Positions 1-62,972 of a stretch of 64,000 bases of DNA are shown here, piece after piece; the first letter of the stretch is position 1, and every line of letters begins with the position of its first letter. This DNA comes from a virus, in IMG/VR virus record IMGVR_UViG_3300025120_014919, positions 1 through 64,000 of that record. One strand, given 5' to 3'. The position numbers and the translations under genes are program-made. The notes below the pieces were generated by a model. That model ran no database searches. It was not told where the DNA came from and saw only the letters and a list, made by a program, of their open reading frames with translations.

Positions 1-697
1 CAAGCCCTTCCAATCCAGCAGTATAAGTACCGTCGGATTGAATAATAGTAAAGGTTGTATCACTACCATAATGTGTAAGCTCTATTGTTTGATGTTCTGA
101 TCCAGACTGTACTAAGTTAAGATCATTACTATCACCTTGAAGTTGGATGGTTTGGCTATGACCGATACCAAAGTTACCACCTTCTTGAATTGATGTAATT
201 TGATTACCATTACCTATTAATGAAACATCAGATACTGCTCCAAGATTATCATTAAGATAAAAATCTAATATATTACCATTACCAATAATGAAGTTTTTTA
301 GAGTTTGTTGGGATATAACTGAAGCTTCTGAAGATGTATCGTCTTTTTGAAGTGAAATAACATTACCATCTCCAAGAATAGTATTGGTAAATGTATTTTG
401 ATCACCATTTACTATAAAGTCTTGAGTATTACCATTACCTTCAATATATAGACCAAAAGTAGTTTGATCTCCATCCCATTGAATATCTAATGTGTTACCA
501 TTACCAATTTGAGAAATATCGAAATCACTACTATCCCCTGCTATAGTAGAAATATTAGTTGATGTACCGATTTTATTACCAGAACCAACTTGAGTGATGT
601 CAAACGTCCCGGTAGATCCGTCTTGTTCTAAGTATATTTCATTATTTGCAAATGCAATAGTACTTGTTAATAATAATGCTAGTAGTGTTGTTTTCAT
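1..697 (-). CDS. Secreted curlin-repeat (CsgA/CsgB-like) beta-solenoid protein, 3' end outside window
   Basis: Not in ORF track. Manual translation from ATG 697: MKTTLLALLLTSTIAFA (signal peptide) NNEIYLEQDG..ITQVGSGN..ISQIGNGN..IEGNGN..ILGDGN..IIGNGN..LIGNGN..LQGDSN; recurring Q/I-x-G-x-G-N curlin units; open to position 1; directly downstream of csgG. Confidence 0.8.
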   Translation of the reverse strand, partial: MKTTLLALLLTSTIAFANNEIYLEQDGSTGTFDITQVGSGNKIGTSTNISTIAGDSSDFDISQIGNGNTLDIQWDGDQTTFGLYIEGNGNTQDFIVNGDQNTFTNTILGDGNVISLQKDDTSSEASVISQQTLKNFIIGNGNILDFYLNDNLGAVSDVSLIGNGNQITSIQEGGNFGIGHSQTIQLQGDSNDLNLVQSGSEHQTIELTHYGSDTTFTIIQSDGTYTAGLEGL

Positions 698-702
698 ATG
701 AA

Positions 703-710
703 TATTTATA
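703..710 (-). promoter_or_regulatory. T4-type late promoter TATAAATA of curlin gene
   Basis: Perfect TATAAATA on minus strand, 5 nt before ATG 697. Confidence 0.8.
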
Positions 711-730
711 AAAAACAACACTGTTTTTTA

Positions 731-1519
731 CTATTCAACAAAATTCCACAAACCTTTTTCGTCTCCTTGCAGCATCAAATCAATAATACATGCATCTATA
801 GCTTTTCTTGTAGCAATTGAAACTCTTTCATTTCTTGCATAACCAATTTCAGCTTCTCCATAATCATTAAATTCACCTAAATTTAATTCATCAGTATCAA
901 AATACTTAAAAAACGTAGCTCCTGTACCGACACTTAATATAGTTTTACTAACCGTTGAAGATAATAGTATTTGACCTGAATTAACACTAACAAATCTCAT
1001 TGAAACTGTAACATTATCTTTTCTATATTGTTTAGAAAACCCAATACCTAAATAACTGGCTCCTATACCACCAGATACGATATTACTTTCGTATGAAATA
1101 ATACCACCTTCAACAATCATACCAGCAAATAATAAAGCTCCTATACTTTCTTCAGTATCATTAAAAGATTTCCTATTAGTTTTAATAATATTTCTTTCAT
1201 TTAATAAGTTAGCAAGATTTGCTCTCTCAACTACATTAAACCATTTACCATTACCTGCTTCTATTAATGATTCTATTACCCAAGCCTCTCCTCCTTGTGT
1301 AACTGCAGATGAAAAAGATGCATAATTATCAGCTGTTTTTCTTTGACCTGTTTTATCATCGAACGAATAGACCGCTACAAATATCGGTGCTTCCTTTACA
1401 TCTTTCATATCCCCCTGATCAATCATATATGGGGGTTTCTGCACCCAAGGTGGATTTTGAACAGGTGTTGAAACACATCCCACCATTAGTAGTAAAGTTA
1501 AACTAATTAAAATTTTCAT
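731..1519 (-). CDS. csgG: Curli secretion channel lipoprotein CsgG
   Basis: Lipobox MVGC; VAVYSFDDKTGQRK, SSAVTQG, WFNVVER, EGGIISYESN motifs; adjacent csgF. Confidence 0.93.
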   Translation of the reverse strand: MKILISLTLLLMVGCVSTPVQNPPWVQKPPYMIDQGDMKDVKEAPIFVAVYSFDDKTGQRKTADNYASFSSAVTQGGEAWVIESLIEAGNGKWFNVVERANLANLLNERNIIKTNRKSFNDTEESIGALLFAGMIVEGGIISYESNIVSGGIGASYLGIGFSKQYRKDNVTVSMRFVSVNSGQILLSSTVSKTILSVGTGATFFKYFDTDELNLGEFNDYGEAEIGYARNERVSIATRKAIDACIIDLMLQGDEKGLWNFVE

Positions 1520-1983
1520 TATGGGGTATCGGTCGATGCTGGTGGTATATACAATGAACCAATTGGTATAACTATACTAGTCGTTGAACCGTCAATTAAA
1601 TCGTTAATAGTAATATAAATTTGATCATCAGAAGATTTATACCAAGTTAATTCACTATCTTCAATTGCAAAAGTACCTGTATCTAACCCGTCATCTGCAA
1701 ATAATTGTTCTGTTACCTGTTTGGCTAATTCAGAATAAATTCTTGCTTGTAAACTTGATAAGAAAGTATTAACAGCAGATCTTTCATCAGCTAATTCAGC
1801 TTGTATTTGAGCTGATTCAATTTCATCTTCGATAGCTTTTTTTCGATTAAATGAAATTTGCTCTAAAGTTAATTTATGAGCAGAATAGCCTACCCCGGTA
1901 AATGTTGGTGATTTAAATTGAAATACAATCTCACTACCAAATAACATACAAGGTAGTAATAAACAAAGAAAAATATTTTTCAT
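1519..1983 (-). CDS. csgF: Curli assembly protein CsgF
   Basis: Signal peptide then SEIVFQFKSPTFTG (cf. CsgF FQFRNPNFGG), F..SLQARIYSELAKQ, C-terminal TSIVIP. Confidence 0.88.
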   Translation of the reverse strand: MKNIFLCLLLPCMLFGSEIVFQFKSPTFTGVGYSAHKLTLEQISFNRKKAIEDEIESAQIQAELADERSAVNTFLSSLQARIYSELAKQVTEQLFADDGLDTGTFAIEDSELTWYKSSDDQIYITINDLIDGSTTSIVIPIGSLYIPPASTDTP

Positions 1984-1988
1984 AAAAC

Positions 1989-1996
1989 TATTTATA
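1989..1996 (-). promoter_or_regulatory. Late promoter TATAAATA of csgF-csgG
   Basis: 5 nt before ATG 1983. Confidence 0.8.
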
Positions 1997-1998
1997 TA

Positions 1999-2307
1999 CT
2001 ATTTCTTATTTTTCAATAATTCTTCTTCTTTGCGTTTGTATTCGTTTTCCATTATTTCTCGTCTATCTTTTTCTTGAAGAATCATTTTCAATTTTATATT
2101 AAGACGTATCATATCATTATCTAACATTCTAACTTTATCGATTAATTCAATTAGCGTTTTTTTAGATGAACCGATTGTAGGTGATACGTCTTTTGTTACC
2201 CATTGCCATACATAATAAACAAAATAACCTAAACCTATGGCTGCTATAACTGGAAAGCCAAAGTCCTGTACAAGCTTCGAAAAGTGATCTATCATTTGAT
2301 CATTCAT
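1999..2307 (-). CDS. Small single-TM + coiled-coil membrane protein (YvrJ/holin-like)
   Basis: GFPVIAAIGLGYFVYYVW TM segment; paralog-like to 2310..2591. Confidence 0.6.
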   Translation of the reverse strand: MNDQMIDHFSKLVQDFGFPVIAAIGLGYFVYYVWQWVTKDVSPTIGSSKKTLIELIDKVRMLDNDMIRLNIKLKMILQEKDRREIMENEYKRKEEELLKNKK

Positions 2308-2309
2308 AA

Positions 2310-2591
2310 TTAATCTTTCCTTGCATCTTCTTTACCTTCGGAAGCTGCTATCCTATCTAAGTTGGGTTCGACATTAAATGCATGAGATATTAAAGTATCA
2401 ATTTTAACTATTTCATTTGTCATGACATCTACTCTATTCTGTAAACTACCTATCATAGCTCCGATACCTTCGATAGATCCTTTCACCCCGTTTAATATAA
2501 ATTTTAAAATAATGAATATAAATAAACCACCGGATAAGGCACCAGCAATTGGAAAACCTACCTCAGTCAAAAATCTAATAAACCCACCCAT
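2310..2591 (-). CDS. Small single-TM + coiled-coil membrane protein (YvrJ/holin-like)
   Basis: EVGFPIAGALSGGLFIFIIL TM segment; TAAATA 6 nt upstream. Confidence 0.6.
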   Translation of the reverse strand: MGGFIRFLTEVGFPIAGALSGGLFIFIILKFILNGVKGSIEGIGAMIGSLQNRVDVMTNEIVKIDTLISHAFNVEPNLDRIAASEGKEDARKD

Positions 2592-2671
2592 ATAAAATAT
2601 TTATTAAAACAAGGTGGTTGAAATATATATTATAATAAGTAAATATTAGCATTAAATAAAAAACTGGGTAT

Positions 2672-3052
2672 ATGGAACAATTGATTTTACATTTAACGGG
2701 TGACTATCTGTTACAAAGTGACTGGATGGCACTTAATAAGATTAAGAATAGTAGAGCAGCAGCAACGCATGCTTTAGTTTATTCGATACCATTTTTATTA
2801 TTACAACCGTCTCTTGAAGCTTGGTTTATAATCTTTTTTACCCACTTTTTAATTGATCGATTCGCAATTGCAAAATATATAGCATTTGCTAAAACTAAAG
2901 TAGCTCCTTGTAAGTGGTGGCCATCATGGAAAGATTGTCACGTTAATGGTTATAATAAAGATATACCAGTTTGGTTATCGACATGGTTGTTGATTATTAC
3001 TGATAATACAATTCATTTAATTATTAATTATTTGGCTTTAAAGTATCTATAA
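2672..3052 (+). CDS. DUF3307-family membrane protein
   Basis: HLTGDYLLQSDWMA, H..VY, THFLID, DNTIH motifs. Confidence 0.75.
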   Translation: MEQLILHLTGDYLLQSDWMALNKIKNSRAAATHALVYSIPFLLLQPSLEAWFIIFFTHFLIDRFAIAKYIAFAKTKVAPCKWWPSWKDCHVNGYNKDIPVWLSTWLLIITDNTIHLIINYLALKYL

Positions 3053-3080
3053 AAAAACTCTACTATTGCTAGTAGAGTTT
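3051..3080 (-). terminator. Intrinsic terminator between convergent genes (possibly bidirectional)
   Basis: Stem aaactctacta/tagtagagttt, GCAA loop and U-run on minus strand. Confidence 0.8.
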
Positions 3081-3102
3081 GTATTAAAAAATAATTATTA
3101 AA

Positions 3103-3309
3103 TTATTTCTTAGCTTTAGTAGCTGGCTTCTTAGTCTTTTTAACTACAGGCTTTTTTAGCTCAGCTTTTAGTTCTTTTAGCTCAGCTTCTGCCTTTGCTG
3201 CAAGATCTTTTGCTTCATTAACTACTTTATTAACTTCTTCTTGATTGTTTCTCGCTACGAGTGCGCCTACGACGAACCCTACGATGAATATAATTACATT
3301 TATGATCAT
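3103..3309 (-). CDS. Small membrane-anchored coiled-coil protein with basic tail
   Basis: N-terminal TM, Lys/Ala-rich C-terminus. Confidence 0.65.
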   Translation of the reverse strand: MIINVIIFIVGFVVGALVARNNQEEVNKVVNEAKDLAAKAEAELKELKAELKKPVVKKTKKPATKAKK

Positions 3310-3316
3310 AAGAATA

Positions 3317-3967
3317 TTATTTAGTCACACCTTCTTTTGTTTTCCAGAAATATTCATCAGTATCTCCTAAACGATATTCGTATCCGCTTTCTACTTGATA
3401 ATATTTTGTACTAACTTTAAAGTCTGGCATCTTAGGTTTTTGCGGAGTTAAAGAATTATCGTAAACTCTCATTCTGTTATTTGGATATAACGCATATTGA
3501 CCGTTTTCTAATTCTAAACAGTTAAATGATTTATGTTCATCCGGTACTTCTGCTGTAGAATAATCAACACGGTCTGGGTCCGGGTGATAATTATCTAAAG
3601 TAAACATATATGTACCTTTAACAACTTGATGGCTTCTTGTAAAAACTTCGAAGTCCATCGAACCAATAAACTGCTTATATATCGCAACAACTCCATAGTC
3701 CATACAATTCCAAAATTGTAAATCTTGTAAAGGTAAATCTGGTTCAGGTGTTTCTGGAGAGGAAACAAATGCTGATATTGGTAGTTTATCAAAAAGAGCT
3801 CCATACTCCGGTAAGTATGTTTCAAAATAGAATGCTCTACCGGGTAATGATTTAGCACTAACCCAATGACCTTCTACAAATTCACCATGACCTTCTTCAC
3901 CGTCATGTAAATATTCTTTCCTAACATAAACTTTTGCATTAGGTAGATTACAAATTAATTCACTCAT
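3317..3967 (-). CDS. Hypothetical protein of a type common in marine T4-like phages
   Basis: Clean 216-aa ORF; TAAGTA promoter variant 6 nt upstream. Confidence 0.7.
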   Translation of the reverse strand: MSELICNLPNAKVYVRKEYLHDGEEGHGEFVEGHWVSAKSLPGRAFYFETYLPEYGALFDKLPISAFVSSPETPEPDLPLQDLQFWNCMDYGVVAIYKQFIGSMDFEVFTRSHQVVKGTYMFTLDNYHPDPDRVDYSTAEVPDEHKSFNCLELENGQYALYPNNRMRVYDNSLTPQKPKMPDFKVSTKYYQVESGYEYRLGDTDEYFWKTKEGVTK

Positions 3968-6605: not shown

Positions 6606-7778
6606 TCACCTATATCTTTTTATAATATCCTCAAAATTTTCTTCGCTCGAATCTAAAGGTAACTCTTCTTGTGTAGGTGGCTGTAATTGATTTGCAAATC
6701 TGTATTGATTATCATTATTCTTATCTTTTAAAGTCATCATACCAGTTTCTTGATCTATATCTTGCAAAATATATGCTGCTCCACTAGTACCTTTAACTTC
6801 TTTACCTATTTGATCTCTAAATCTGTTAGCTTGTCTAATCATTTCTGATCTTTGTTCTTCTAAAGATCTACCAGCTTGTGATGCTGCAACTTTTATTTTA
6901 TCCATTACATTTCTAGGACTTAATTTTGGACTTCTTTTAGAACCTCCAGGTTTTCTTTGCTGGCTTTTCATACCTTCAGGTATATTATCAAAAAGAATTT
7001 TATGTACTTTTGGATCTTTTGTTTGACTTTGTGATTTAATATATTTTGTAAAGGAATTAACTTCATTAGGATGCTTTTTAAATATTGGTGTTAACTTATT
7101 TGTAGCTAAAGTTACAATTTCAACATCAGTTGGTTTACCATAATTATCATCTTGTAATAAAAATTTTATATAGATATTTTTATCTGCTTCATTTTTTGGA
7201 TCTCCAAAAAATTTACCAATTTCTGGAGCTGCTTGACTAGTACCATCTATAAAAGTTTTTTCAGTTTGTTGAGCTATTTCTTTTTTAGCCGCTTGTTTAC
7301 CTGCTTCAATATCAACACCTTTTATTGCAGCATCAACCTTTTTCATACCATTTTTATAATCTGCATCTTCAATTGAAGTTAACTGTTCACCTCTAGCTAA
7401 TTTATCATATGCATTCTTAAATTTAAGATCACCCATATAAACTTTTTTCAATTCTGGGCTCATTTCAGATTTTCCTTGTGTACCACCGCCTTTTAATTCT
7501 TGTTGTTGTTTTTTTGCTTTTAATTGTTCTTGTCTTGCTTGAGCAACTGCAGTATCACGTTCAGCACTTCTCATGTCATAAGCTCTTGTACCAGGTATCA
7601 TTGCTCTTACTGCATTAAATGCATTACCAAAACCACCACCACCGGTCGGTGCACTCGATTTTCTAATTTCTAAAATAGTTTTATTAAAATTACCTTTATT
7701 GAAAACTTTAGATATATTTGTGTTTTCATTTAAATTAAATTCTTTAGAAACTTTTTCAAATAATTCTTTATCTGTCAT
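6606..7778 (-). CDS. Hypothetical late protein, probable internal head protein
   Basis: TAAATA-N5-ATG; N-terminus MTDKELFEKVSKEFNLNEN; Lys/Gln-rich. Confidence 0.65.
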   Translation of the reverse strand: MTDKELFEKVSKEFNLNENTNISKVFNKGNFNKTILEIRKSSAPTGGGGFGNAFNAVRAMIPGTRAYDMRSAERDTAVAQARQEQLKAKKQQQELKGGGTQGKSEMSPELKKVYMGDLKFKNAYDKLARGEQLTSIEDADYKNGMKKVDAAIKGVDIEAGKQAAKKEIAQQTEKTFIDGTSQAAPEIGKFFGDPKNEADKNIYIKFLLQDDNYGKPTDVEIVTLATNKLTPIFKKHPNEVNSFTKYIKSQSQTKDPKVHKILFDNIPEGMKSQQRKPGGSKRSPKLSPRNVMDKIKVAASQAGRSLEEQRSEMIRQANRFRDQIGKEVKGTSGAAYILQDIDQETGMMTLKDKNNDNQYRFANQLQPPTQEELPLDSSEENFEDIIKRYR

Positions 7779-7811
7779 TGAAATATTTAATCTATATGGT
7801 ATAATAGATAT

Positions 7812-8864
7812 ATGTCCGAAAAAAATAAAAGTTATGAATGGTTAGGTGATGATGTAAGTGAAAGTGAACTTACAGGTGAGAAGGATATTATTGCAAAAGA
7901 AATAATGGGTGAAGAATATAGTAAGAGTTATTTTCCTCCTATTAGAGTTTATGATAATAAAGTTAAAGCTGATAGAAAGTATATTTCATCGTTACCTGAT
8001 TTACAAAATGGTCCATCAAGTTTAATTCAAGGTGCTGCAGTACCTATTCAACAAGTAGGTATACATAACTTTAAGTTACCTCTTACATATAAAAAGAGAG
8101 ATGGTAAAACTATTAATCTCGAAACTAGTGTAACTGGTAGTGTTAGTTTAGAAGCTCATAAGAAGGGTATTAATATGTCCCGTATTATGAGAAGTTTTTA
8201 TGATCATAAGGATGATCTATTTAGTATTGATAATATTAAAGATGTATTAGAGTCATATAGAGAAAATCTTAAATGCTTTGATTCAAGAATTATGCTTAAG
8301 ATTTCATACCCTATTAAGCAAACTAGTTTACGTAGTGGTTTAGAAGGTTATCAATATTATGATGTTGTATTTGAAGGTGATATTACTAAAGAAGGTAAAT
8401 TTAAAAAATATATTCACTTTGATTTTGTTTATTCATCTGCATGTCCTTGTAGTTTTGAATTAAGTGAACATGCTGAAAAGTATCGTAACCGTGCTACTGT
8501 ACCTCATAGTCAACGTAGTGTTGCAAGAGTTAGTGTACGCTTTGACGATATGTTATGGGTTGAAGATATACAAGAGTTATGCTTAGCAGCTCTTCAAACC
8601 GAGACTCAAGTAATGGTTAAGAGAGAAGATGAGCAAGCGTTTGCTGAATTAAATGGCTCTAATCTAAAGTTTGTTGAAGATGCAGTACGTTTAATGTATG
8701 AAAAGCTAAGTAGTGAATCCCGTATTAAAGACTTTAAGATTGTAGCATCTCATAATGAGAGTTTACATAGCCATAATGCAATATCAGTTATTGTAAAAGG
8801 GGTTGAAGGCGGCTTTTCTGCTGGTGTTGCTAGAGATGTATTTGAAACTACAGGTTTAAGATAA
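7812..8864 (+). CDS. folE2: GTP cyclohydrolase IB (FolE2)
   Basis: LPDLQ, IQQVGI, KGINMSRI, SACPCS, PHSQRS, VKREDEQAFA, FVEDAVR, ESLHSHNA; promoter TTGAAA-N16-TATAAT-N6-ATG. Confidence 0.93.
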   Translation: MSEKNKSYEWLGDDVSESELTGEKDIIAKEIMGEEYSKSYFPPIRVYDNKVKADRKYISSLPDLQNGPSSLIQGAAVPIQQVGIHNFKLPLTYKKRDGKTINLETSVTGSVSLEAHKKGINMSRIMRSFYDHKDDLFSIDNIKDVLESYRENLKCFDSRIMLKISYPIKQTSLRSGLEGYQYYDVVFEGDITKEGKFKKYIHFDFVYSSACPCSFELSEHAEKYRNRATVPHSQRSVARVSVRFDDMLWVEDIQELCLAALQTETQVMVKREDEQAFAELNGSNLKFVEDAVRLMYEKLSSESRIKDFKIVASHNESLHSHNAISVIVKGVEGGFSAGVARDVFETTGLR

Positions 8865-9302
8865 TTAATCTAAATTACCTTCAGCACTTACATCGATTAA
8901 ACCACCTAGTTCTTCAATAAATTCTTTACCAACTAGTATTTTATACTCGTTACCGTCTCTAGACCCGATAGAGAATTTTGTATTAGGGTACATTTTATCA
9001 CCTATTTCGATATCAAACTCGACCACAGGTCTATTATCAATAGTTGGTGTATCATCTGGACCAGAACCAACATTAATATCAATAAATTCTAATACTTCCT
9101 TTTCTAAGTTTTTATTATTAACTGTATCAAAAGTTACGCGTGATTTATCTTCATTAAAAACTAAATTAATACCGTGTAATACATTATAAGCCCCATTACC
9201 ACTATCGATTTTAGCTTCAACTGGGCCTAAATCTTGAAAAGTTATAGTTTCAATTAAACCTAACGGTTTATTAGATTCGTAGAATTTTTTAAATTTAATC
9301 AC
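8865..9302 (-). CDS. Retropepsin-like putative protease (RimK-associated ATP-dependent Zn protease family)
   Basis: AKIDSGNG, RPVV, F...R, ILVG motifs; GTG start 5 nt after TAAATA. Confidence 0.75.
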   Translation of the reverse strand: MIKFKKFYESNKPLGLIETITFQDLGPVEAKIDSGNGAYNVLHGINLVFNEDKSRVTFDTVNNKNLEKEVLEFIDINVGSGPDDTPTIDNRPVVEFDIEIGDKMYPNTKFSIGSRDGNEYKILVGKEFIEELGGLIDVSAEGNLD

Positions 9303-9310
9303 ATTATTAT

Positions 9311-9499
9311 TTATGCTTTATTACTATTCTTTACGTCTTGTATTTCTTTTCTTATAGTTTTTGTAAGTTTAGCAATTTCCAGAAGAGCTTTTCTTGCTCT
9401 TGTACCAGCTGCTGCTACACCTTTTTCATTAAACTTTTCAATTTCTTCTTGAAAAGAGTTATATTGTTCAACTAATATTTTTAAGTTTTCATCATTCAT
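9311..9499 (-). CDS. Histone H1-like Hc1-domain small protein
   Basis: KF.EKG..AAGTRARKALLEI.KL.K..RKEIQ. Confidence 0.8.
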   Translation of the reverse strand: MNDENLKILVEQYNSFQEEIEKFNEKGVAAAGTRARKALLEIAKLTKTIRKEIQDVKNSNKA

Positions 9500-9509
9500 A
9501 ATAATTTAT

Positions 9510-10157
9510 TTATACCAATACCTTATTTTTATCAAACCATGAATTAATATATTCATGTATACCGTAAATAAAATCTTCATTTTTATAATCAACTATATTT
9601 TTATAAAATTCAAAATATTTACTACTCAATAAAGTACAGTCATAACTTTTTATATTGTAATAATTATATAAAAAATGCTGACCATTAAGATTCAATACAT
9701 TAATTATATCGTTTTGATTTTTATCATAAAATAATTTTTGTAAATGCTTTAATTGTTTACATAATTTTTTAAAAAATATAGAATTATTATTATACATAAT
9801 ACTATTACATATATAACGATCTACTTTTCTACTGAATAAAACAGCATTTTTATTAAAAAATAATTCTTCAACATTTTTATAAAAAAAGATATCTATATCT
9901 GTATAAAAACCACCTTCGTAATCTAATATAAAAAATCTTGCAGCATCAATTTTTTCTATATTATAATTAAAACTATCAAATGTATCTAGAAAATAGTTAT
10001 ATTCTGTTTTTATTAAAGTTCTGCATCTATCTAAATCCCATAAATTATATTGCCAACTGGGATGATTGTCTAATAGAGATAATTGATGTTGTTTAAAATC
10101 TTCTGGATATTCACCTTTATCCCAAATTTGGTGAATTTTTTTAACTATTTTTGACAT
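9510..10157 (-). CDS. GT32/OCH1-like DxD glycosyltransferase
   Basis: KKIHQIW, HPSWQYNLWD, D.ARFFIL..EGGFYTDID. Confidence 0.85.
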   Translation of the reverse strand: MSKIVKKIHQIWDKGEYPEDFKQHQLSLLDNHPSWQYNLWDLDRCRTLIKTEYNYFLDTFDSFNYNIEKIDAARFFILDYEGGFYTDIDIFFYKNVEELFFNKNAVLFSRKVDRYICNSIMYNNNSIFFKKLCKQLKHLQKLFYDKNQNDIINVLNLNGQHFLYNYYNIKSYDCTLLSSKYFEFYKNIVDYKNEDFIYGIHEYINSWFDKNKVLV

Positions 10158-10897
10158 TTTTCTTTAAATGTTTCTTTAAATTTTTTAGCTCCATCTCCAG
10201 ACCACATAATAGAATCAATACTATGTGTTTTATCTTTATACTTACTATCTAATAATTTAAGAGTTAATTTATTTTCATCATAATATGTATGTAAAGCATA
10301 ATGATCTGCATTCCAACTAACATAATTACCTTCGGTAAAAATATAATTATTAATCTTTTGAATTAAATCCTTTACATTTTGATTATTTTTAAATAAAAGA
10401 AACCCTTCATTGCAAAATTTATCATTATCTTTTGGAGCTATTACTGAATATACATCCGACTGTAAATCATAAAAAATATCATCAAAGTTTTTTAAAGCTA
10501 TTGTATCGACGTCCAAAGAAAGAACGTTATAACCTTTCAATAATAATTCGTTTATAGATAAAAATCTTGAATGACATGTATAAAAACTGCGCGGGCTATA
10601 TAAAACTTTTTTTAAACCGAGTATATTTTTTATACCATATAAATGCTTTATTTCATATTTTTCTTTAGTTTTAAATAAAGTTCTTTTTTTACTTAATCCC
10701 GGATTATCAATTATTAGATTTATATTAGCGTATTTATTTTTAACTTCTTTTATTTGATCTTCGGTAAAATCTACCAATCTAACAAAAATTTTTAATTCTG
10801 TATTAACTGATTGTAATGAATCTAAAAAAGGATATAAAAATTTTAAATAATTATAATCAGTCGAGCAGGTTAATGCATTATTCGAAGTAGTTTTCAT
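10145..10897 (-). CDS. GT-A fold nucleotide-diphospho-sugar transferase
   Basis: RF, VLSLDVD, N.GF, W.AD motifs; operon context. Confidence 0.65.
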   Translation of the reverse strand: MKTTSNNALTCSTDYNYLKFLYPFLDSLQSVNTELKIFVRLVDFTEDQIKEVKNKYANINLIIDNPGLSKKRTLFKTKEKYEIKHLYGIKNILGLKKVLYSPRSFYTCHSRFLSINELLLKGYNVLSLDVDTIALKNFDDIFYDLQSDVYSVIAPKDNDKFCNEGFLLFKNNQNVKDLIQKINNYIFTEGNYVSWNADHYALHTYYDENKLTLKLLDSKYKDKTHSIDSIMWSGDGAKKFKETFKEKCQK

Positions 10898-11978
10898 ATT
10901 TACTTTTTCTCCTTACATCTAATGTAGTACAATGATGAGCACCTCCAAAAATTTCACAGTGTCTAAAAGGTGTACCTATAGCTTCTATTTTATATTTTTT
11001 TAAAACTTCGTTTAGTTTCTTTTCGTATTGCGGATGACATATTATTAATTCCTTTGATATACTAAATAGATTAAGTTCTATTCGAGGGGAAGCTAACTTT
11101 AAACCTTGTTTATTAAACTCATTTTCACTTCGCTCTCTCATTGGTATATGTATAAGATCCCATGACTGTAGTTCTTTTGGTAATCTTTCTTTAATAAAAT
11201 CTTTAGTAATAATTGCAAGACCTGGTCTCAATGGTAAAAAAGATGCATCTATATGGGAATCTGCTAGAGGAGCTGTTAAAACTTTATATTTTTCACCTAA
11301 CATATTTTGCAACCACACTGCACCAAGTCTTTGATTTTCATTTATTACATTCATCAATATATGACTACCTAATCTCATGCAATTTGCAGCATCAAATATA
11401 ATTTCATGACCGCAATCATAATAATTTTCATCTTGTTTTGAATCTACATAATATTGTCTACCATTATTTTCATCAATCCAAGATAAATCAAAACTATTAT
11501 CAGTCATTAAAGGTTTCGGTGCATGTACCCACGAACAACCATTCTTAAAATAATCTAAAAATAAATGATGTAATAAATTATTTTCAAAATAACGATATCG
11601 ACACGATGGTGGAGATTCAATAATCATATCACCTACAACCATTGCCATATCTCGTACATTTAATGCTGGGTGTATGGTACTTTCAAAAACCGGGGTAATA
11701 ACTTTTTGAATAGTTTCTGGTTTTTTAGGTCTTTTAACTTTAACTCCGAATGATTGTAATAGGGTTGCAAACTTTTCTATATCTTCCGAATGTTCTTCAC
11801 AGTGTCTTTTACTTATACTTTCTTTACCGAATTCATATGCTTTTGTATCGAAAAGATTTTCATGAAAAAAGAGTTTAAAGGTATAATCCAATAAAGGTAA
11901 GTTAGTTGGAAATCCATCACCAACAATTACTTCTTCAAGTTGATCCCATTCATTATGACTATTTACTATATTTTTCAT
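10878..11978 (-). CDS. L-arginine amidinotransferase (glycine/inosamine-phosphate type, StrB1/AGAT family)
   Basis: VNSHNEWDQLEEVIVG, RD, FDAA (Asp), HID (His), GGAHHCTTLDVRR (Cys): complete catalytic triad. Confidence 0.9.
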   Translation of the reverse strand: MKNIVNSHNEWDQLEEVIVGDGFPTNLPLLDYTFKLFFHENLFDTKAYEFGKESISKRHCEEHSEDIEKFATLLQSFGVKVKRPKKPETIQKVITPVFESTIHPALNVRDMAMVVGDMIIESPPSCRYRYFENNLLHHLFLDYFKNGCSWVHAPKPLMTDNSFDLSWIDENNGRQYYVDSKQDENYYDCGHEIIFDAANCMRLGSHILMNVINENQRLGAVWLQNMLGEKYKVLTAPLADSHIDASFLPLRPGLAIITKDFIKERLPKELQSWDLIHIPMRERSENEFNKQGLKLASPRIELNLFSISKELIICHPQYEKKLNEVLKKYKIEAIGTPFRHCEIFGGAHHCTTLDVRRKSKYENYFE

Positions 11979-12762
11979 CGAATATTTTCATTTCATTTAA
12001 TTGTTTCTCTAATGAATTAATATTTAAATTAAATTTTGTCGAAAGAGATCTATCTAAAATTTTATTAATTTTTTGATTTTCTATACTACTTGCTAGAGTT
12101 TTTTCAATGTTTATATTTAAAGAGTATATGTTATTAATCAATTTGCATAATTCATATTTTGATATTTTAGATGGGCTATGTAAATGTTTAACACCTTGCC
12201 ATAAAGTATCATTTACAATATTTTCTTTAATAAATTTAGCTAATTCTAACGCAGTTACCCCATTCCAAATACAATTATCATAACCATTAATAGATTTATT
12301 TTTATTTTCTAATAACCATTTAAATAAACCACTATATCTACCTATAAATGATGTTCTAATTATTGTACCGGCTTTAACTAATTTTTTTGATAAAGCATAT
12401 ATATCTTTTGCGTCAGTAGGATCATCTTCATTATAATTACCTTTATCTCCTGCAAATACACAATCAGAACAGATATGTATAAAGTGAGAATTATTTGAAT
12501 TACATATTTGATTTAATGAATTAGGAAAAGTAGAATTTATTAAAAATGTATTTTCAACCCCTACTTGTTTAATATTAGGTTTTAAAATACCTACACAATT
12601 AATAACAATATCTCCCGGGTTTAAAATAGATGTTAAAAACTTAAAATCTGTTGAAGCAGCATTAAAGTCTTTTCTTGTGAAAACTATACATTCAAAACTT
12701 TCTGATAAAAAGTTATTGATATATTTTCCAGCATTACCGTTACCTAAAATAATAATTTTCAT
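11959..12762 (-). CDS. rmlD: dTDP-4-dehydrorhamnose reductase-like SDR
   Basis: ILGNGNAG, INCVG, HICSDCVFAG, YALSK, WNGVT. Confidence 0.8.
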   Translation of the reverse strand: MKIIILGNGNAGKYINNFLSESFECIVFTRKDFNAASTDFKFLTSILNPGDIVINCVGILKPNIKQVGVENTFLINSTFPNSLNQICNSNNSHFIHICSDCVFAGDKGNYNEDDPTDAKDIYALSKKLVKAGTIIRTSFIGRYSGLFKWLLENKNKSINGYDNCIWNGVTALELAKFIKENIVNDTLWQGVKHLHSPSKISKYELCKLINNIYSLNINIEKTLASSIENQKINKILDRSLSTKFNLNINSLEKQLNEMKIFDEKYSK

Positions 12763-13382
12763 TTAAAACAATCAAGTTTTGATAAGTCTACTTTATATTC
12801 ATCACTGGATGAACTATCTTTATTAAAATTATTAACATTATAATAATTCTGTATACCAATAACTGCTTGTTCTGGTGACATATACATATGATAACCTATT
12901 TCTTCAACAGGGGTTGTAATCATATCATTATAAAATACAGAAGGTCTACCATCATATCTCATTTTTCTAAACCATTTATAAGCTTCTTTATCATTAGTAA
13001 GTATCATACCACCTTTACCAGTGGATAATATTTTTTTAAAATTGAAAGATAAACAATAAAACGTACCATTAACATACATATTTTTAGTAAAACGTTGAGC
13101 TGAATCGATAACCGGTAAGGGGTCTAACCTATAACAACCTGACCATTTTTTATCTATAAATTTAATATTATAACCAGCATGGATTATTTGCATTGGAACT
13201 GAAACATAGGTTCTTTTAGGTACATTTATAGTATTATCTTTATAATCTTTTTTATTATAACAATATTTTAATGATAGAAAAAGAGCATTAGTACAACTGT
13301 CAACTGCTATCGCATATTTACTACCCGCATACTCAGCTATAATTTCTTCAAATTTATCTACATTATCCCAAACAGTACTCAT
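12759..13382 (-). CDS. Short DegT/DnrJ/EryC1/StrS-family PLP aminotransferase (207 aa)
   Basis: FEE.IAEYAGSKYAIAVDSCTNAL, IDSAQ, SFNFKKILSTGKGGMILTND. Confidence 0.8.
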   Translation of the reverse strand: MSTVWDNVDKFEEIIAEYAGSKYAIAVDSCTNALFLSLKYCYNKKDYKDNTINVPKRTYVSVPMQIIHAGYNIKFIDKKWSGCYRLDPLPVIDSAQRFTKNMYVNGTFYCLSFNFKKILSTGKGGMILTNDKEAYKWFRKMRYDGRPSVFYNDMITTPVEEIGYHMYMSPEQAVIGIQNYYNVNNFNKDSSSSDEYKVDLSKLDCFK

Positions 13383-13999
13383 GATTTCTGATATATTAAA
13401 TTAAAACCTTCAGCATACAATCCATTACATTCCATACCTCGAAACATTGCATACGTTTTTATACCATCATATGATCTAGGATTTGGAAACTTTCTAACTT
13501 CATTTTTATATTCACAAAAACGTTCTATTTTAGAATTTAAATTAGTTAATGTTAATTCTTCATAATAATTACATTTAAAATTATTATTGAATGATTGTGT
13601 AGTTGATGATGGTACTTCATACATTAAGATCTTATCCGGGGAATGTTCTTGATATCTCCTTAAAACAACTTCACAAATTTCATGAACCGTTTTATGGTCT
13701 ATATTAAAATCATCTTTATTAGGTATAAAAACTATATTTGGTTTTAAATTATTGTATATATTTTCAATATTTTTTAATAATTTATTTTTTACAATATTAT
13801 ATGATTCATCTTGAAACGGTAAAATATGTACAGATGTAAAACAATTAGTAGCTTTCGCTATATGATTATCATCATCATTTTTTCTTACACCGCATATTAT
13901 TACATGAACTTCATTTCCAGCTTCAATATATTTATGAGCTGTACCACCGACTCCGAGTAGTTCATCATCTGCATGCGGGGCTATAATAAGAGTACTCAT
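13379..13999 (-). CDS. PIG-L/LmbE-family N-acetyl-sugar deacetylase
   Basis: APHADDELLGVGGT, DH, YEVPSS, RG....YAEGF; promoter TTGATT-N16-TATAAT-N6-ATG. Confidence 0.88.
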   Translation of the reverse strand: MSTLIIAPHADDELLGVGGTAHKYIEAGNEVHVIICGVRKNDDDNHIAKATNCFTSVHILPFQDESYNIVKNKLLKNIENIYNNLKPNIVFIPNKDDFNIDHKTVHEICEVVLRRYQEHSPDKILMYEVPSSTTQSFNNNFKCNYYEELTLTNLNSKIERFCEYKNEVRKFPNPRSYDGIKTYAMFRGMECNGLYAEGFNLIYQKS

Positions 14000-26499: not shown

Positions 26500-26973
26500 A
26501 TGGCTAATACTAAAAAAGCAACCGGTAAGCGTAGAGGGCCGAAACCAAAAAAGACAGAATACTATGTTGACCCTCGAGAATTAAAACAAGAACTAATTGA
26601 TTATTATAAATGTGAGAATTGTACACCTAAATTGGGGGAAATGATTCATAAAATAGCTCACGGGTTAAGTTATTCATCTAATTTTATAAATTATACATAT
26701 CGCGATGAAATGGTAGGCGATGCTTTAGTTAAGATGTATACTGCGGTTACCAATAAAAAGTTTAATGTAGATTCAGAATACAATCCTTTTTCGTATTTTA
26801 CTACTATAGCGTTTCATGCTTTTATTAATAGAATTAAAAAAGAAAAGAAGCATACTGAGACTTTAAGTCAATATAAAGAAAAGGTTTACGAGCAAGAAAT
26901 GTTAAATTCGATGGATGGTAGGGTGTATGTTAAACCTATGAGCGACGAAGTTGATTTTGGTGATGACGCGTAA
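26500..26973 (+). CDS. gp55: Late-transcription sigma factor gp55
   Basis: NFINYTYRDEMVGDA, NPFSYFTTIAFHAFINRIKKEKK; promoter TTGAAA-N16-TATAAT-N6-ATG. Confidence 0.92.
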   Translation: MANTKKATGKRRGPKPKKTEYYVDPRELKQELIDYYKCENCTPKLGEMIHKIAHGLSYSSNFINYTYRDEMVGDALVKMYTAVTNKKFNVDSEYNPFSYFTTIAFHAFINRIKKEKKHTETLSQYKEKVYEQEMLNSMDGRVYVKPMSDEVDFGDDA

Positions 26974-53573: not shown

Positions 53574-53990
53574 TTAGTTAAACTTATATTTAGGATCATT
53601 AGCACCTGCTAAATAACCTTTTAAGATTTCACTAAGTGAAGAAACTTCCATCGCAACTCTAGCAATCTTCTTTGTTTCGGCATTTGAAATACTATCAAAA
53701 ATTGTATCTCCTTCAGCTGAATTAAGCGAAGTTTGGATACTATCTGAAGTACCATTCAAGTAATCAGAAAATTCATCCATTTTTTGGATCCAACTATTTA
53801 ACTCCTCGAACATTTGTTTTGATTGAGAGCTTATTGGGCTATCTCCTTCAGGTACATCGACATCAAACTCATCAATCGATGTGTCGGGATCTAATGTAGA
53901 AGCCATTGCTTCTTGATCAGTTAATTCATCAGTATTTTCATCATCTTGCTCTCTTAAAAACTTAGAGAATCTTTTTTGGTATAAGCTCAT
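53574..53990 (-). CDS. Acidic probable internal head protein
   Basis: Start corrected to 53990 (MSLYQKRFSKFLREQ), 5 nt after TATAAATA. Confidence 0.7.
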   Translation of the reverse strand: MSLYQKRFSKFLREQDDENTDELTDQEAMASTLDPDTSIDEFDVDVPEGDSPISSQSKQMFEELNSWIQKMDEFSDYLNGTSDSIQTSLNSAEGDTIFDSISNAETKKIARVAMEVSSLSEILKGYLAGANDPKYKFN

Positions 53991-53995
53991 ACAAT

Positions 53996-54007
53996 TATTT
54001 ATAAATA
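53996..54007. promoter_or_regulatory. Palindromic bidirectional late promoter TATTTATAAATA
   Basis: Perfect palindrome; ATG exactly 5 nt beyond each end (53990 minus, 54013 plus). Confidence 0.85.
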
Positions 54008-56750: not shown

Positions 56751-57623
56751 TTATTCGAAGAAATCTTGTCCGGTATGTAACCCAACTTTATTATTTTTAC
56801 CTTGTAAATGAGCTTTCTTATCTCCTAATTCCTTAGGTTCTGCTTCAACATACTTTTTAGTTGAATCAGATGCTTTATTACCTTTTGCTTTAATTGAACC
56901 TACTTTATTATTCTTTGACATTAATGATTGACCTGCAGAACTTGGAACTTCTTTCATCTCAACTGCTTCTTGATGAGTATCGTCTTCCTCTTCTTCTGTA
57001 TCTTCTTCTGCCTCTTCCATTTCCATTGAATAATCTTCATCAGCATCTGCTTCTTCACTATCATCATCTTCATCTCCCATTGCTGCTTGCAACATGTCGC
57101 AAAGTGACTTAGCCATATCACGATCAATCGTGATTGTAACTTCGTCTGATTCGGTTTCACCCACTTCGGTATCGATACCGAGTGCGTCCAATTCTTGTTC
57201 TTGGTCTGAGTGACCCATTTCTTCACCCATCACATTTTCAAATAATTTATCAAAAGTAGATTTCATAAAAATATTTATACTCTCTTTTACTTTTTTCTCG
57301 ATTTTTTTATCTTTTTTATCCTTTTTATTATAATTTTCTGCAGAATACTTATCACTATCATATAATTCGTCTTCCTTCTTGCTATGTTTAGGATCTATAG
57401 GTTTATTTAAACCATCAATTTCATAAACCGGTTCCGTGGTTCTTGGTCCTTTAGAATGCTGTTTATTTTTAGATTTATTAGAGTTTAAATCAACAGCACC
57501 GGGTCCTGGTTTCATTCCCATATTTTTAGTACCACCTTCAATAGGTCTACCTGCTTTACCTTCGCTGATAATATTATTATTATATGTATCCCATATTTCG
57601 GTTAGAGTATTTGCTCTTGTCAT
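56751..57623 (-). CDS. Highly charged late protein, probable prohead core/internal protein, with nested start at 57266
   Basis: TATAAATA-N5-ATG; acidic tract; followed by terminator. Confidence 0.7.
   Translation of the reverse strand: MTRANTLTEIWDTYNNNIISEGKAGRPIEGGTKNMGMKPGPGAVDLNSNKSKNKQHSKGPRTTEPVYEIDGLNKPIDPKHSKKEDELYDSDKYSAENYNKKDKKDKKIEKKVKESINIFMKSTFDKLFENVMGEEMGHSDQEQELDALGIDTEVGETESDEVTITIDRDMAKSLCDMLQAAMGDEDDDSEEADADEDYSMEMEEAEEDTEEEEDDTHQEAVEMKEVPSSAGQSLMSKNNKVGSIKAKGNKASDSTKKYVEAEPKELGDKKAHLQGKNNKVGLHTGQDFFE
57272..57279 (-). promoter_or_regulatory. Intragenic late promoter driving an in-frame short isoform
   Basis: TATAAATA-TTTTT-ATG(57266), in frame (357 nt from 57623). Confidence 0.75.
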
Positions 57624-59930: not shown

Positions 59931-62900
59931 ATGGCACGTACAATACAATCTCCCGGAGTAGAAATAAAAGAAATTGATTTAAGTTTGAGAGCAAACTTAC
60001 CAATAGGTACTAATATTTTAGTACCAGGGTTTGCTGATGAAGGACCAACAGATCAAATTATTCAAGTTACATCAAGAAGTGAGTTTGAAACTATTTTTGG
60101 TCTACCTAAGACACCAGCTGAAAGATATTTTTACCATACAGTTACACCATTATTTGATTCACCAGCAAAGGTAAGCGTATATAGATTACCTTATGGTTCT
60201 AATAAAGGTGAAGGCTTTTCTTCAAACTATAGTGCATTAGCATATCCTGCTAAAGGTATTAGTATTAGTACAGAAGGAGCTGGTGCATCAGCAAAAGCTT
60301 CAGTTCATGAAGTTGCATTACAGACAAGAACATCTGATAATACATATTTTGGAGCTGCATCAGCTAGTTTAAGTGCATTCCAAGTTACGACACCTGATGG
60401 TACAGTTGCAGAAGCACCAGCATTAACACTTAACGATCCGTCAAACAAATTTGTATTTAGACAATATGATGGTTCAAATGCAGGTATAACAGTTACTGGT
60501 GGTTCTAATGCAATACCATTTGGTTTTACAACAGCCCTTTCAGGTGGTACTGATTTTACAACCAATGTAAAGTATTTCTCAGGTGGGTTTGATAAAGCAT
60601 CAGGATTTCCTCTAGATACAGCTGAGGAAGTGACCTTAGACTTTTATAGAAACACAGTATTACCTACAGTTTCAGGTGCAGTAGTAGCATTTACAGCATC
60701 AGGATCAGTATCAGGTAGTAATAAAGCACCATTCGTACAAGTTACTGCAGCAGATGGTGATAATTTAAGTCTTTTCTATACCGCTGCATCTTCGGTTAAG
60801 ACTAAAGTATTAGGAGGAGTTACCCAAACAGTAACTCGTACAAATGGTTACCCTGACGGAGGCGCTGGTTTCTTTGGTAATACAGTTAATCTTGATTTTA
60901 ATGAAAATAGCGAAATACAAGGTTCAAATTATGGTCAAGGTTTAACCACATATAATGAGCAAGCTTCAGGTAACTTGTTTGTTCTAGGTAAGCCAATACA
61001 TTTCCAACTTACTGAAGACCAATACAACAATATCCTACAAAAGAAGACATTTGATTGGGAAAATAGTATTGCAACATCTGCTACTTTAAGTAGTTTTGGT
61101 GAATTAGGTAAATCAGCAATGATTGTTCTAAATAAAGGTCAAACATCAATTGATGATAAGTTCCAAGGTTTTTATGTTGGTGCTCTTGATAATACAAATC
61201 TTAACCCAGCGACTAATTTTGATGGATTATTAACTGTTGAATCAGTAGCTCAATCAGCTAATATAACATCCACATATACCACACTACCAGTACAAAGACT
61301 TGATTTCTCATTATCTTCGATATCTGATAATAATACCGATACATTCGGTCAAGTTACTGATAGTCTTTCAGAAATAATGGAGAATGTGCAGTCATTTGAT
61401 ATATCTGATAAAGAATTCGATGATACGATTTCAGTAGGATTGTTTAGATTAAATCGTTCTAATTACTCACCAGACACCATTAAGTTAGCAGCTGGTTTAG
61501 GTGAAAAATATGTAGGTACATTCGATTATCATCGTCAAGTTAATAATCCTAATGGAGGTACACCAGAAAGCTTCTCATTGGAAACAAAAGAAGATGGTTC
61601 ACCTAATGTTCAAATTATTGTTAATGAGTTCTTAAGTCATAAAGATGGTAGTTCATATTTAGATATTAACGGTAATCCGACAACTAAGATAAGATTAGGT
61701 TCATCTAAGATTGATAGTAATGCATCTTCATTTGCAGATAGAATAACTTATTTCCAACAATTATCTACAGAATATGGAGCTACGACTCGTACGCAAGCAA
61801 CAATTCTATCAGGAGCGGTTGAATCAGCAGTTACAAGTGATATATTCCCAGCAGATTCGTTGTTTCCTTTAGGTAGCTACCAAAATAGTAGTAATGCTAA
61901 AGTTAAGAATTTAGGGTCTATACCTAAGAAGTTGAATAGATTAACTGATCTAGCAGAAGATCGCGATTTATTTGATATCGATCTTACAGTAGATGGTGGT
62001 TTAACTACTATTAATGCAGTTTCTGAATACTTAGAACGAGGTGGTAAAGGTAAATACTTTGATGATACGGTATCGGTTTCAGCTATTGAAGGTTTTTATG
62101 AATCAAATATATTAGATATATCACCTGAAGCAGTAGCATTTAGAAGCGACTGGAAGACAGTATTTGATGTATTTGCTAATTTTGCAGAATTCCGCAGAAA
62201 AGATCATATGTTTATTGCTGACTTACCGAGACATATATTCGTTCAAGGTAAAAACTTTAAGACATTAAATGATGATACTAAGAGCTTTTCATTTAACTTG
62301 ATGAACCCACTACGAGCAATGGTATCAGTAGTCAATACAAGTTACGCAGCAACGTATGCTAATTGGGCTCAAGTTTATGACCCAGTTTTAGATGACCAAG
62401 TTTGGGCACCAATCTCAGGCAATATAGCGAAAACGATGGCTAATTCGGATAGTAATTTCCAACCATGGTTTGCACCAGCTGGATTCACTAGAGGTATTAT
62501 TACCGGGGTTAATGACTTGGCACTATATCCAAAGCAGTCACAGAGAGATCAATTATACAATCGTTCAATTAATCCTATAGCATTCTTTCCGAATGAAGGT
62601 TTTGTAACATTTGGTCAAAAGACATTGCTTAAGAAGCCAAGTGCTTTCGATAGAATTAATGTAAGAAGACTATTCTTAAATCTAGAAAAAGCAACTAGAC
62701 GTACAGTTAAGTTCTTCGTATTTGATCCGAATACGTTAGTTACCAGAACAAGGTTAACAAATGTAATTCAACCTATATTTGAGAATGCTAAAAATACTGA
62801 AGGCTTATATGATTTCTTAATTGTATGTGATGAAAGAAATAATACACCAGAAGTAATCGATCAAAATGAGTTAAAGGTAGATATATACCTGAAACCAGTA

Positions 62901-62972
62901 AGAGCAGCAGAATTTATATTAGTTAATTTCTTTGCTACCAGAACTGGTGTTGATTTCAACGAACTTATTTAA
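59931..62972 (+). CDS. gp18: Contractile tail sheath gp18 (1013 aa)
   Basis: SPGVEIKEIDLS, PWFAPAGFTRG, INP, FGQKTL, SAFDRINVRRL, YLKPVRAAEFI; TAAATA-N5-ATG. Confidence 0.95.
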   Translation: MARTIQSPGVEIKEIDLSLRANLPIGTNILVPGFADEGPTDQIIQVTSRSEFETIFGLPKTPAERYFYHTVTPLFDSPAKVSVYRLPYGSNKGEGFSSNYSALAYPAKGISISTEGAGASAKASVHEVALQTRTSDNTYFGAASASLSAFQVTTPDGTVAEAPALTLNDPSNKFVFRQYDGSNAGITVTGGSNAIPFGFTTALSGGTDFTTNVKYFSGGFDKASGFPLDTAEEVTLDFYRNTVLPTVSGAVVAFTASGSVSGSNKAPFVQVTAADGDNLSLFYTAASSVKTKVLGGVTQTVTRTNGYPDGGAGFFGNTVNLDFNENSEIQGSNYGQGLTTYNEQASGNLFVLGKPIHFQLTEDQYNNILQKKTFDWENSIATSATLSSFGELGKSAMIVLNKGQTSIDDKFQGFYVGALDNTNLNPATNFDGLLTVESVAQSANITSTYTTLPVQRLDFSLSSISDNNTDTFGQVTDSLSEIMENVQSFDISDKEFDDTISVGLFRLNRSNYSPDTIKLAAGLGEKYVGTFDYHRQVNNPNGGTPESFSLETKEDGSPNVQIIVNEFLSHKDGSSYLDINGNPTTKIRLGSSKIDSNASSFADRITYFQQLSTEYGATTRTQATILSGAVESAVTSDIFPADSLFPLGSYQNSSNAKVKNLGSIPKKLNRLTDLAEDRDLFDIDLTVDGGLTTINAVSEYLERGGKGKYFDDTVSVSAIEGFYESNILDISPEAVAFRSDWKTVFDVFANFAEFRRKDHMFIADLPRHIFVQGKNFKTLNDDTKSFSFNLMNPLRAMVSVVNTSYAATYANWAQVYDPVLDDQVWAPISGNIAKTMANSDSNFQPWFAPAGFTRGIITGVNDLALYPKQSQRDQLYNRSINPIAFFPNEGFVTFGQKTLLKKPSAFDRINVRRLFLNLEKATRRTVKFFVFDPNTLVTRTRLTNVIQPIFENAKNTEGLYDFLIVCDERNNTPEVIDQNELKVDIYLKPVRAAEFILVNFFATRTGVDFNELI

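Follow-up and report, generated by a model that had tools for sequence, protein, structure and literature searches.

We find that the window analysed here, the first 64 kb (64,000 nucleotides (nt)) of the IMG/VR virus record IMGVR_UViG_3300025120_014919, opens with the first five genes of a conserved 7-8-gene module that is cut at the contig end (positions 1-2591), and that these genes include a divergent curlin placed directly after phage-encoded csgF and csgG. We read the whole as a pelagiphage-type viral type VIII secretion (curli) module whose curlin is exported through the phage's own pore, and give this reading a probability of roughly 0.7; whether the exported curlin goes on to form a true amyloid fibre we regard as about an even bet. 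The evidence directly in hand is the identity of the parts, the repeats of the curlin, its predicted fold, the synteny of the module and the layout of its promoter boxes.

The source contig is linear, 105,613 bp long and has a GC content of 29.7%; CheckV estimates its completeness at ~50%. The window starts at contig base 1, and the five genes, all on the minus strand, point at this contig end. They and their promoter-like boxes are as follows.

2598-2605, minus strand: late-promoter-like box AATAAATA found by motif scan, 6 nt (N6) from the TM1 ATG at 2591
2310-2591, minus strand: TM1, small membrane protein of 93 aa (phrog_18771, 2.4e-25)
1999-2307, minus strand: TM2, small membrane protein of 102 aa (phrog_18771, 5.5e-28)
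1989-1996, minus strand: late-promoter core TATAAATA, exact T4 match, 5 nt (N5) from the csgF ATG at 1983
1519-1983, minus strand: csgF, 154 aa (Pfam PF10614, 60.5 bits; phrog_35372, 8.6e-31)
731-1519, minus strand: csgG, 262 aa (Pfam PF03783, 165.6 bits, E 1.3e-48)
703-710, minus strand: late-promoter core TATAAATA, exact T4 match, N5 to the curlin ATG at 697
2-697, minus strand: curlin-family open reading frame (ORF) starting at ATG 697 and open at base 2, 232 of 254 codons

A first-pass annotation made from the sequence had described csgF and csgG followed by an overlooked ORF running from ATG 697 to the window edge, with TAAATA late promoters ahead of the membrane-protein pair (2605-2598), csgF (1996-1989) and the curlin gene (710-703), and we recover all of these elements on the minus strand. 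The curlin ORF lacks its stop codon because the contig end cuts it. The cassette within 1-2591 is incomplete: the module continues past the contig end with genes for a FecR-domain protein and a CHASE2 cyclase.

Phage-encoded CsgG and CsgF

The csgG product clears the Pfam CsgG cut-off of 20.8 bits by a wide margin and matches E. coli CsgG structures at 5.7e-41, aligned over residues 4-260. It keeps the D-x-T-G-Q motif, an L-M-V-G-C lipobox and the constriction-loop motif F-S-x-A-V, including the loop Phe, with the loop Asn replaced by Ser. CsgG proteins of the cultured phages HTVC008M and Melnitz are 40-43% identical to it. The csgF stop codon and the csgG ATG overlap as TAATG, by which csgG is translationally coupled to csgF.

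CsgF likewise scores well above its Pfam cut-off (25.8 bits) and has a signal peptide. In its N-terminal motif F-x-x-P-x-F-x-G, the residues F23, P26, F28 and G30 are invariant among six phage CsgFs and E. coli CsgF. We take this peptide to be the segment that inserts into the CsgG barrel in published CsgG:CsgF complex structures. Outside the motif, the phage protein resembles E. coli CsgF only weakly: BLASTP aligns the N-terminal 22 residues only (E 0.062), and a phmmer search of PDB sequences with the phage protein returned no CsgF among its matches.

A divergent curlin follows csgG

The full-length curlin, taken from a related contig (L008; ~90% DNA identity over 6 kb), has 254 aa, of which the window copy lacks the last 22 codons. 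By heuristic criteria it begins with a signal peptide made up of K2, hydrophobic residues 3-17 (mean Kyte-Doolittle 1.87) and the cleavage motif A-F-A|N-N-E, and a cleavable Sec signal peptide is kept in all 18 aligned homologues. The mature protein is rich in G, I, T, N, D, S and Q and has no Cys. It carries 7-8 curlin-type repeats. Their turns, of which six read G-x-G-N and one G-D-S-N, come at intervals of 22-30 residues. Six G-x-G-N turns were reached in none of 20,000 shuffles of the sequence (maximum four), and in the alignment of 18 homologues the turn G and N are invariant at every turn. The signal peptide and curlin units proposed in the first-pass annotation are thus both borne out.

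A six-frame search with the Curlin_rpt profile (PF07012) gives three repeat matches in the window, of 21, 16.3 and 12.9 bits. Against 177,635 PDB sequences, the top two hits of the family profile are both curlins, the Pontibacter korlensis CsgA 8c50 (E 0.069) and E. coli CsgA 8enq (E 0.19), each of them weak. A profile search of 1.84 billion representatives returned 937 relatives at E<=1e-3. Among 85 sampled relatives, 38 carry Curlin_rpt at E<=1e-3 (best 2.8e-28) and no other family recurs; PHROGs holds no family for the protein. Taken together, this evidence and the predicted fold place it as a divergent member of the curlin superfamily.

An AlphaFold2 model built from the family alignment (predicted local distance difference test (pLDDT) 75.8, predicted template modelling score 0.75) has 16 strands arranged as eight hairpins in a beta-solenoid. 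Its core blocks reach pLDDT 85-95, and residues 1-16 and 229-254 are disordered. In a VIA-align fold search across 48,161 chains, the top match is 8c50 (Z 17.3, 206 residues aligned, 22% identity). The predicted fold is the two-sheet beta-solenoid of solved CsgA structures, in line with the beta-solenoid anticipated by the first-pass annotation.

In this lineage the C-terminus of the curlin is a conserved tail outside the repeats, predicted to be disordered (residues 222-254; L008 6006-6104; the first part lies in the window at 2-34), in which Y225, G228-L-E-G231, I235, F238, G240 and Y242 are near-invariant. The curlins of HTVC008M and Melnitz and most listed remote relatives fail to align over it. 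The tail may be a docking or capping peptide.

The module continues past the contig end

In L008, the curlin gene is followed by a gene for a 313-aa FecR-domain protein (PF04773, 6.5e-10) with its own signal peptide, the two genes overlapping by 50 nt. The FecR gene in turn overlaps, as ATGA, a gene whose 682-aa product combines CHASE2 and class III cyclase (Guanylate_cyc) domains. Because the genes overlap and no box lies between them, curlin, FecR and cyclase form one tightly overlapped unit behind the curlin gene's own late box. Neither FecR nor cyclase is found in the rest of the 105.6-kb contig, which rules out relocation of the missing part within it; the module is truncated.

In each of the 11 loci examined, profile and phmmer searches recovered the order TM1, TM2, CsgF, CsgG, curlin, FecR, (second curlin), cyclase; the set takes in HTVC008M, Melnitz and IMG/VR contigs as long as 258 kb with a CsgG only 39% identical. 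One of these loci (L025) is a 4-kb contig that spans csgF to the curlin gene only. The curlin gene lies directly after csgG in every locus, across CsgG identities of 39-100%, and within the module conservation is highest for the cyclase. Any mechanism proposed for this module has to account for the FecR-domain protein and the CHASE2 adenylate cyclase.

T4-type late boxes precede the cassette genes

Boxes of the form TATAAATA or AATAAATA lie 5-6 nt ahead of the ATGs of TM1, csgF and the curlin gene. Across the contig, TATAAATA is depleted, with 27 occurrences observed and ~47-49 expected from Markov simulations. For TAAATA-N5-ATG, a count over the whole contig (with L013 and L014 covering 64-104 kb) gives 30 occurrences, of which 29 lead into an ORF of 50 aa or more; with other spacers the count is close to background. 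The late boxes therefore exceed chance. Examples within the window include 59931 (tail sheath), 57623, 54013/53990, 24641 and 4846, and NATAAATA-N5-ATG also precedes the tail sheath, the tail tube and two tail-fibre-like genes.

All three cassette boxes are kept in place in five relatives (L008-L012) whose curlins are 64-100% identical, as NATAAATA-N5/6-ATG at TM1 and as a TAAATA box at N5/6 ahead of the curlin gene. HTVC008M has a late box ahead of csgF and another ahead of the cyclase. The window encodes a gp55-like late sigma factor at 26500-26973 (phrog_234, 2.2e-29), as expected for T4-type late transcription, which relies on TATAAATA together with gp55, gp33 and the gp45 clamp and which shares with this phage the same 8-bp core, here ahead of tail genes. 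Positions 1-3400 hold 27 sigma-70-like sites, which does not exceed chance (19.1 +/- 4.6 expected), and no convincing or well-placed sigma-70 promoter lies upstream of the cassette, the TM1 intergenic region included. Late expression of the cassette, as the first-pass annotation had it, is a well-supported inference from this layout: relatives conserve the boxes, tail genes share them, and the phage has a gp55-like sigma of its own.

The spacing differs from that of T4. In T4's late region, 14-28 nt separate the box from the ATG, enough for a leader with a ribosome-binding site, whereas here the distance is exactly 5 nt, sometimes 6-7 nt. The T4 late box occupies positions -13 to -6. With a 5-nt spacer, the A of the ATG would therefore fall at +1, and the late mRNAs are probably leaderless or near-leaderless. 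Our literature search found nothing relevant on leaderless late mRNAs in T4-like marine phages. HTVC008M shows the N5 box layout too, more weakly.

Relation to cultured pelagiphages and to E. coli curli

Neither the module nor its fibre gene is new: annotation dates from 2013 and publications from 2020-2022, and the window leaves that picture unchanged. In the GenBank record of Pelagibacter phage HTVC008M (KC465899, 2013), the label 'curlin-associated protein; curlin minor subunit CsgB' is given to the gene that follows csgG, and the record of Methylophilales phage Melnitz (MZ577097) annotates two 'curlin associated repeat' proteins together with FecR and cyclase. The CsgF/CsgG cluster was described in 2020 with a proposed role in 'sibling capture', that is, aggregation (PMC7029224). 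For Melnitz, a lysis-timing pore was proposed and csgA/csgB were stated to be absent (PMC9004378, 2022), and CsgA/B, FecR and cyclase were explicitly identified in myo- and podo-pelagiphages (PMC9599517, 2022). The latter study detected module genes in metatranscriptomes. Phage curli systems are abundant, at ~0.1% of the viral proteins assembled from global ocean viromes by its estimate; as possible roles it considered aggregation, defence against superinfection, import and recombination, with promoters unmentioned. The first-pass annotation was right that the phage carries its own curlin subunit, but a phage-borne curlin is not new; of its ideas on function, aggregation (PMC7029224) and a block to superinfection (PMC9599517) were already in print.

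Compared with the pelagiphage viral type VIII secretion system (HTVC008M genes 6900-13807, Melnitz; PMC9599517, PMC7029224), the window has the same gene order, including a curlin of ~230-260 aa after csgG, and all proteins give reciprocal hits; the same functional hypotheses have been published for that system. Divergence from the cultured pelagiphage-type phages is nevertheless considerable. The curlin is ~29% identical and CsgG 40-43%, the tail sheath is at most 40% identical to that of any cultured phage, and a related contig measures 185 kb against genomes of 141-147 kb in the cultured phages. This lineage has one curlin gene where HTVC008M and Melnitz have two, three late boxes in the cassette where the HTVC008M and Melnitz regions have one or two, and a conserved curlin tail of ~30 aa in which cultured-phage curlins differ. 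What the window adds is a truncated copy in an uncultured marine phage of a divergent T4-like lineage (~185 kb) and clear sequence evidence of T4-type late boxes.

In HTVC008M, a 441-aa 'hypothetical protein' encoded between FecR and cyclase (L004 6708-8033; 10638-11963 in the record) matches the curlin profile at E 8.5e-13. By this match it is the second curlin gene, unannotated in the GenBank record.

With E. coli curli (csgBAC/csgDEFG) the module shares a full-length CsgG lipoprotein match and the CsgF N-terminal motif. The curlin has in common with E. coli curli and the CsgA structures 8ENQ and 8C50 a Sec signal, Q/N-x-G-x-G-N turns, two strands per repeat and a two-sheet solenoid, and in both systems the subunit gene has a promoter separate from that of the pore genes. 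In contrast to E. coli, the phage module has no CsgD, is linked to FecR and an adenylate cyclase and has phage late-type boxes as its drivers; its curlin has eight repeats of 22-30 aa, against five of ~22 aa in E. coli CsgA, and sequence similarity to CsgA/CsgB is only marginal. According to the literature, the presumed hosts are without any curli genes. Phage curli would then give hosts reportedly lacking curli genes a whole secretion system.

Proposed fibre export and its rivals

From this evidence we infer the late timing, export through CsgG, polymerisation and ecological role of the curlin, as follows. Late in infection, the gp55-type sigma would direct host RNA polymerase to three TATAAATA-type boxes, one each ahead of TM1, of csgF and of the curlin gene; with only 5-6 nt between box and ATG, transcripts would probably begin at or beside the start codon. 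The CsgG lipoprotein, CsgF and the curlin would each pass the inner membrane via host Sec. CsgG would then make an outer-membrane channel into which the conserved CsgF N-terminus plugs. The unfolded curlin would be threaded out and fold on the cell surface into an eight-rung two-sheet beta-solenoid, which could stack as a curli-like fibre anchored by CsgF.

Several observations weigh against this reading. On the side of family membership, CsgG and CsgF clear their profile cut-offs, while the whole-protein Curlin_rpt scores, 20.6 bits for the window fragment and 20.2 bits for the full-length protein, fall just under the Pfam gathering score of 20.7; the repeat hits of the six-frame search are over the cut-off when summed. 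In hhalign, the match of the family profile to a single E. coli CsgA is weak (P 2e-4, probability 46%), as is that to a single CsgB (P 2e-3, probability 13.5%). Structurally, the 8c50 match has a root-mean-square deviation of 9.0 A and is statistically tied with SufD-type beta-helices (Z 16-17, within 1 Z unit), and Foldseek against PDB gave no match at E<=0.001 and only weak beta-helix matches. The curlin ends in a conserved non-solenoid tail (~30 aa, pLDDT <50) that is absent from canonical CsgA, and it has no Gly-rich N22-type targeting segment of the kind found in E. coli CsgA. The module has no CsgE, CsgC or distinct CsgB, and Melnitz-infected cultures were reported without clumping (PMC9004378). 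Finally, the tight linkage to FecR and to the best-conserved cyclase suggests that the module does more than make fibres.

This last point leads to the main rival, a trans-envelope sensor, which we hold to be possible, at something like one chance in four. Here the solenoid would stay tethered at the CsgG/CsgF pore as a surface element, with the exported FecR protein bridging to the cyclase in the membrane through the latter's periplasmic CHASE2 domain. An event at the cell surface, for instance contact, a ligand or a second phage, would then be turned into cyclic AMP (cAMP) in the infected cell, and this could tune lysis timing. The 50-nt curlin-FecR overlap and ATGA junction, with no box between, put all three genes behind the curlin promoter; FecR has its own signal peptide and the cyclase joins CHASE2 to class III catalytic domains; and the cyclase is the most conserved module protein across lineages that keep the gene order in 11 of 11 loci. 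The single curlin gene of this lineage and its specific C-terminal tail, a possible docking peptide, would also suit a tethered solenoid. Yet no curlin/FecR/CHASE2 interaction is known, the FecR and cyclase genes lie outside the window, past the contig end, and eight curlin repeats with open solenoid ends also fit a polymerising subunit. The sensor is compatible with fibre export, and the two are not mutually exclusive. A more specific version, somewhat less probable still, is that in this single-curlin lineage the solenoid serves as the surface end of a phage-built trans-envelope relay comprising CsgG/CsgF, the docking tail, FecR and the CHASE2 cyclase, expressed from leaderless late mRNAs. 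If so, a surface event (contact, superinfection) would be reported as cAMP and would tune the end of infection. Both the fibre and the sensor readings could be tested in relatives that are in culture, HTVC008M with host HTCC1062 and Melnitz with H5P1.

Two further explanations are weaker than the sensor. CsgG/CsgF might act as a gated outer-membrane channel, secretin- or pinholin-like, that times lysis, with the curlin as a plug or accessory. The proposal came from structural modelling and gene neighbourhood, in a study that also saw no clumping of infected cells (PMC9004378); late boxes fit a lysis-associated role, and two small membrane proteins with no assigned function stand at the operon head. 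We consider it improbable, since a ~1-nm outer-membrane pore leaves the inner membrane polarised, the phage proteins keep the CsgF N-terminal motif and the curlin repeats in the way that secretion-competent systems do, and no recognisable endolysin or spanin genes adjoin the cassette in ORF and PHROG scans of the window. Moreover, csgA/csgB were called absent when the lysis pore was proposed (PMC9004378), whereas the Melnitz GenBank record and our profile search show two curlin genes.

The remaining possibility is a repeat protein that serves the virion as fibre or decoration, has nothing to do with CsgG and lies beside csgG by coincidence. We reject it, leaving it a probability close to nil. 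Beta-solenoids are common in phage tailspikes and fibres, several of which appear at Z 10-12 in the fold search, and the gene shares its late box with tail genes. Against this stand the cleavable Sec signal peptide in all 18 aligned homologues, the fixed place directly after csgG in 11 of 11 loci (CsgG identity 39-100%), the position outside the structural block and sequence relatives that carry Curlin_rpt, not tail-fibre families. The cassette's neighbours are auxiliary genes (DUF3307, QueE, PhoH, QueD), and the tail genes are ~55 kb away. The first-pass annotation had named a virion fibre independent of CsgG as the outcome that would count against it; the signal peptide and genomic position speak against such a fibre.

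Small membrane proteins and other features of the window

TM1 has a single N-terminal hydrophobic segment followed by a helical tail. TM2, whose start lies 2 nt past the TM1 stop, is its paralogue, as shown by phmmer cross-hits. Neither matches a Pfam family at E<=0.1, and in the ESM Atlas TM1 matches only virus clusters that have no Pfam family. TM1 lies upstream of csgF in 10 of 11 loci, which is every locus reaching far enough (L025 begins too near csgF), and the TM1-TM2 synteny is kept across related loci. A TM1-type small membrane protein was named 'HK' (histidine kinase) in PMC9599517, a label for TM1/TM2 that neither the Pfam nor the ESM Atlas search reproduces.

Near the cassette, an 11-bp-stem hairpin followed by a T-run (3055-3080) lies between the end of the DUF3307 gene (3052, plus strand) and the end of a convergent gene for a 68-aa membrane protein (3103, minus strand). 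It is probably a terminator common to both convergent genes.

Late boxes elsewhere in the window show two unusual arrangements. A 290-aa ORF at 56754-57623 (minus strand; no PHROG match) contains a second, in-frame TATAAATA-N5-ATG at 57266 that would give a 171-aa product, and this box may be an internal late promoter and start yielding a nested shorter protein. Nested shorter products are known for T4 genes 17 and 21. At 53990 (minus strand) and 54013 (plus strand), a divergent gene pair with products of 138 and 123 aa, neither of them in a PHROG family, has TATAAATA-N5-ATG at both starts; the boxes overlap, at 54000-54007 and 54003-53996, and may constitute a compact bidirectional late promoter.

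The tail sheath protein (59931-62969, plus strand) is unusually long, at 1013 aa. Only its C-terminal third (~660-1012) matches sheath families, and the N-terminal ~650 residues have no PHROG match.

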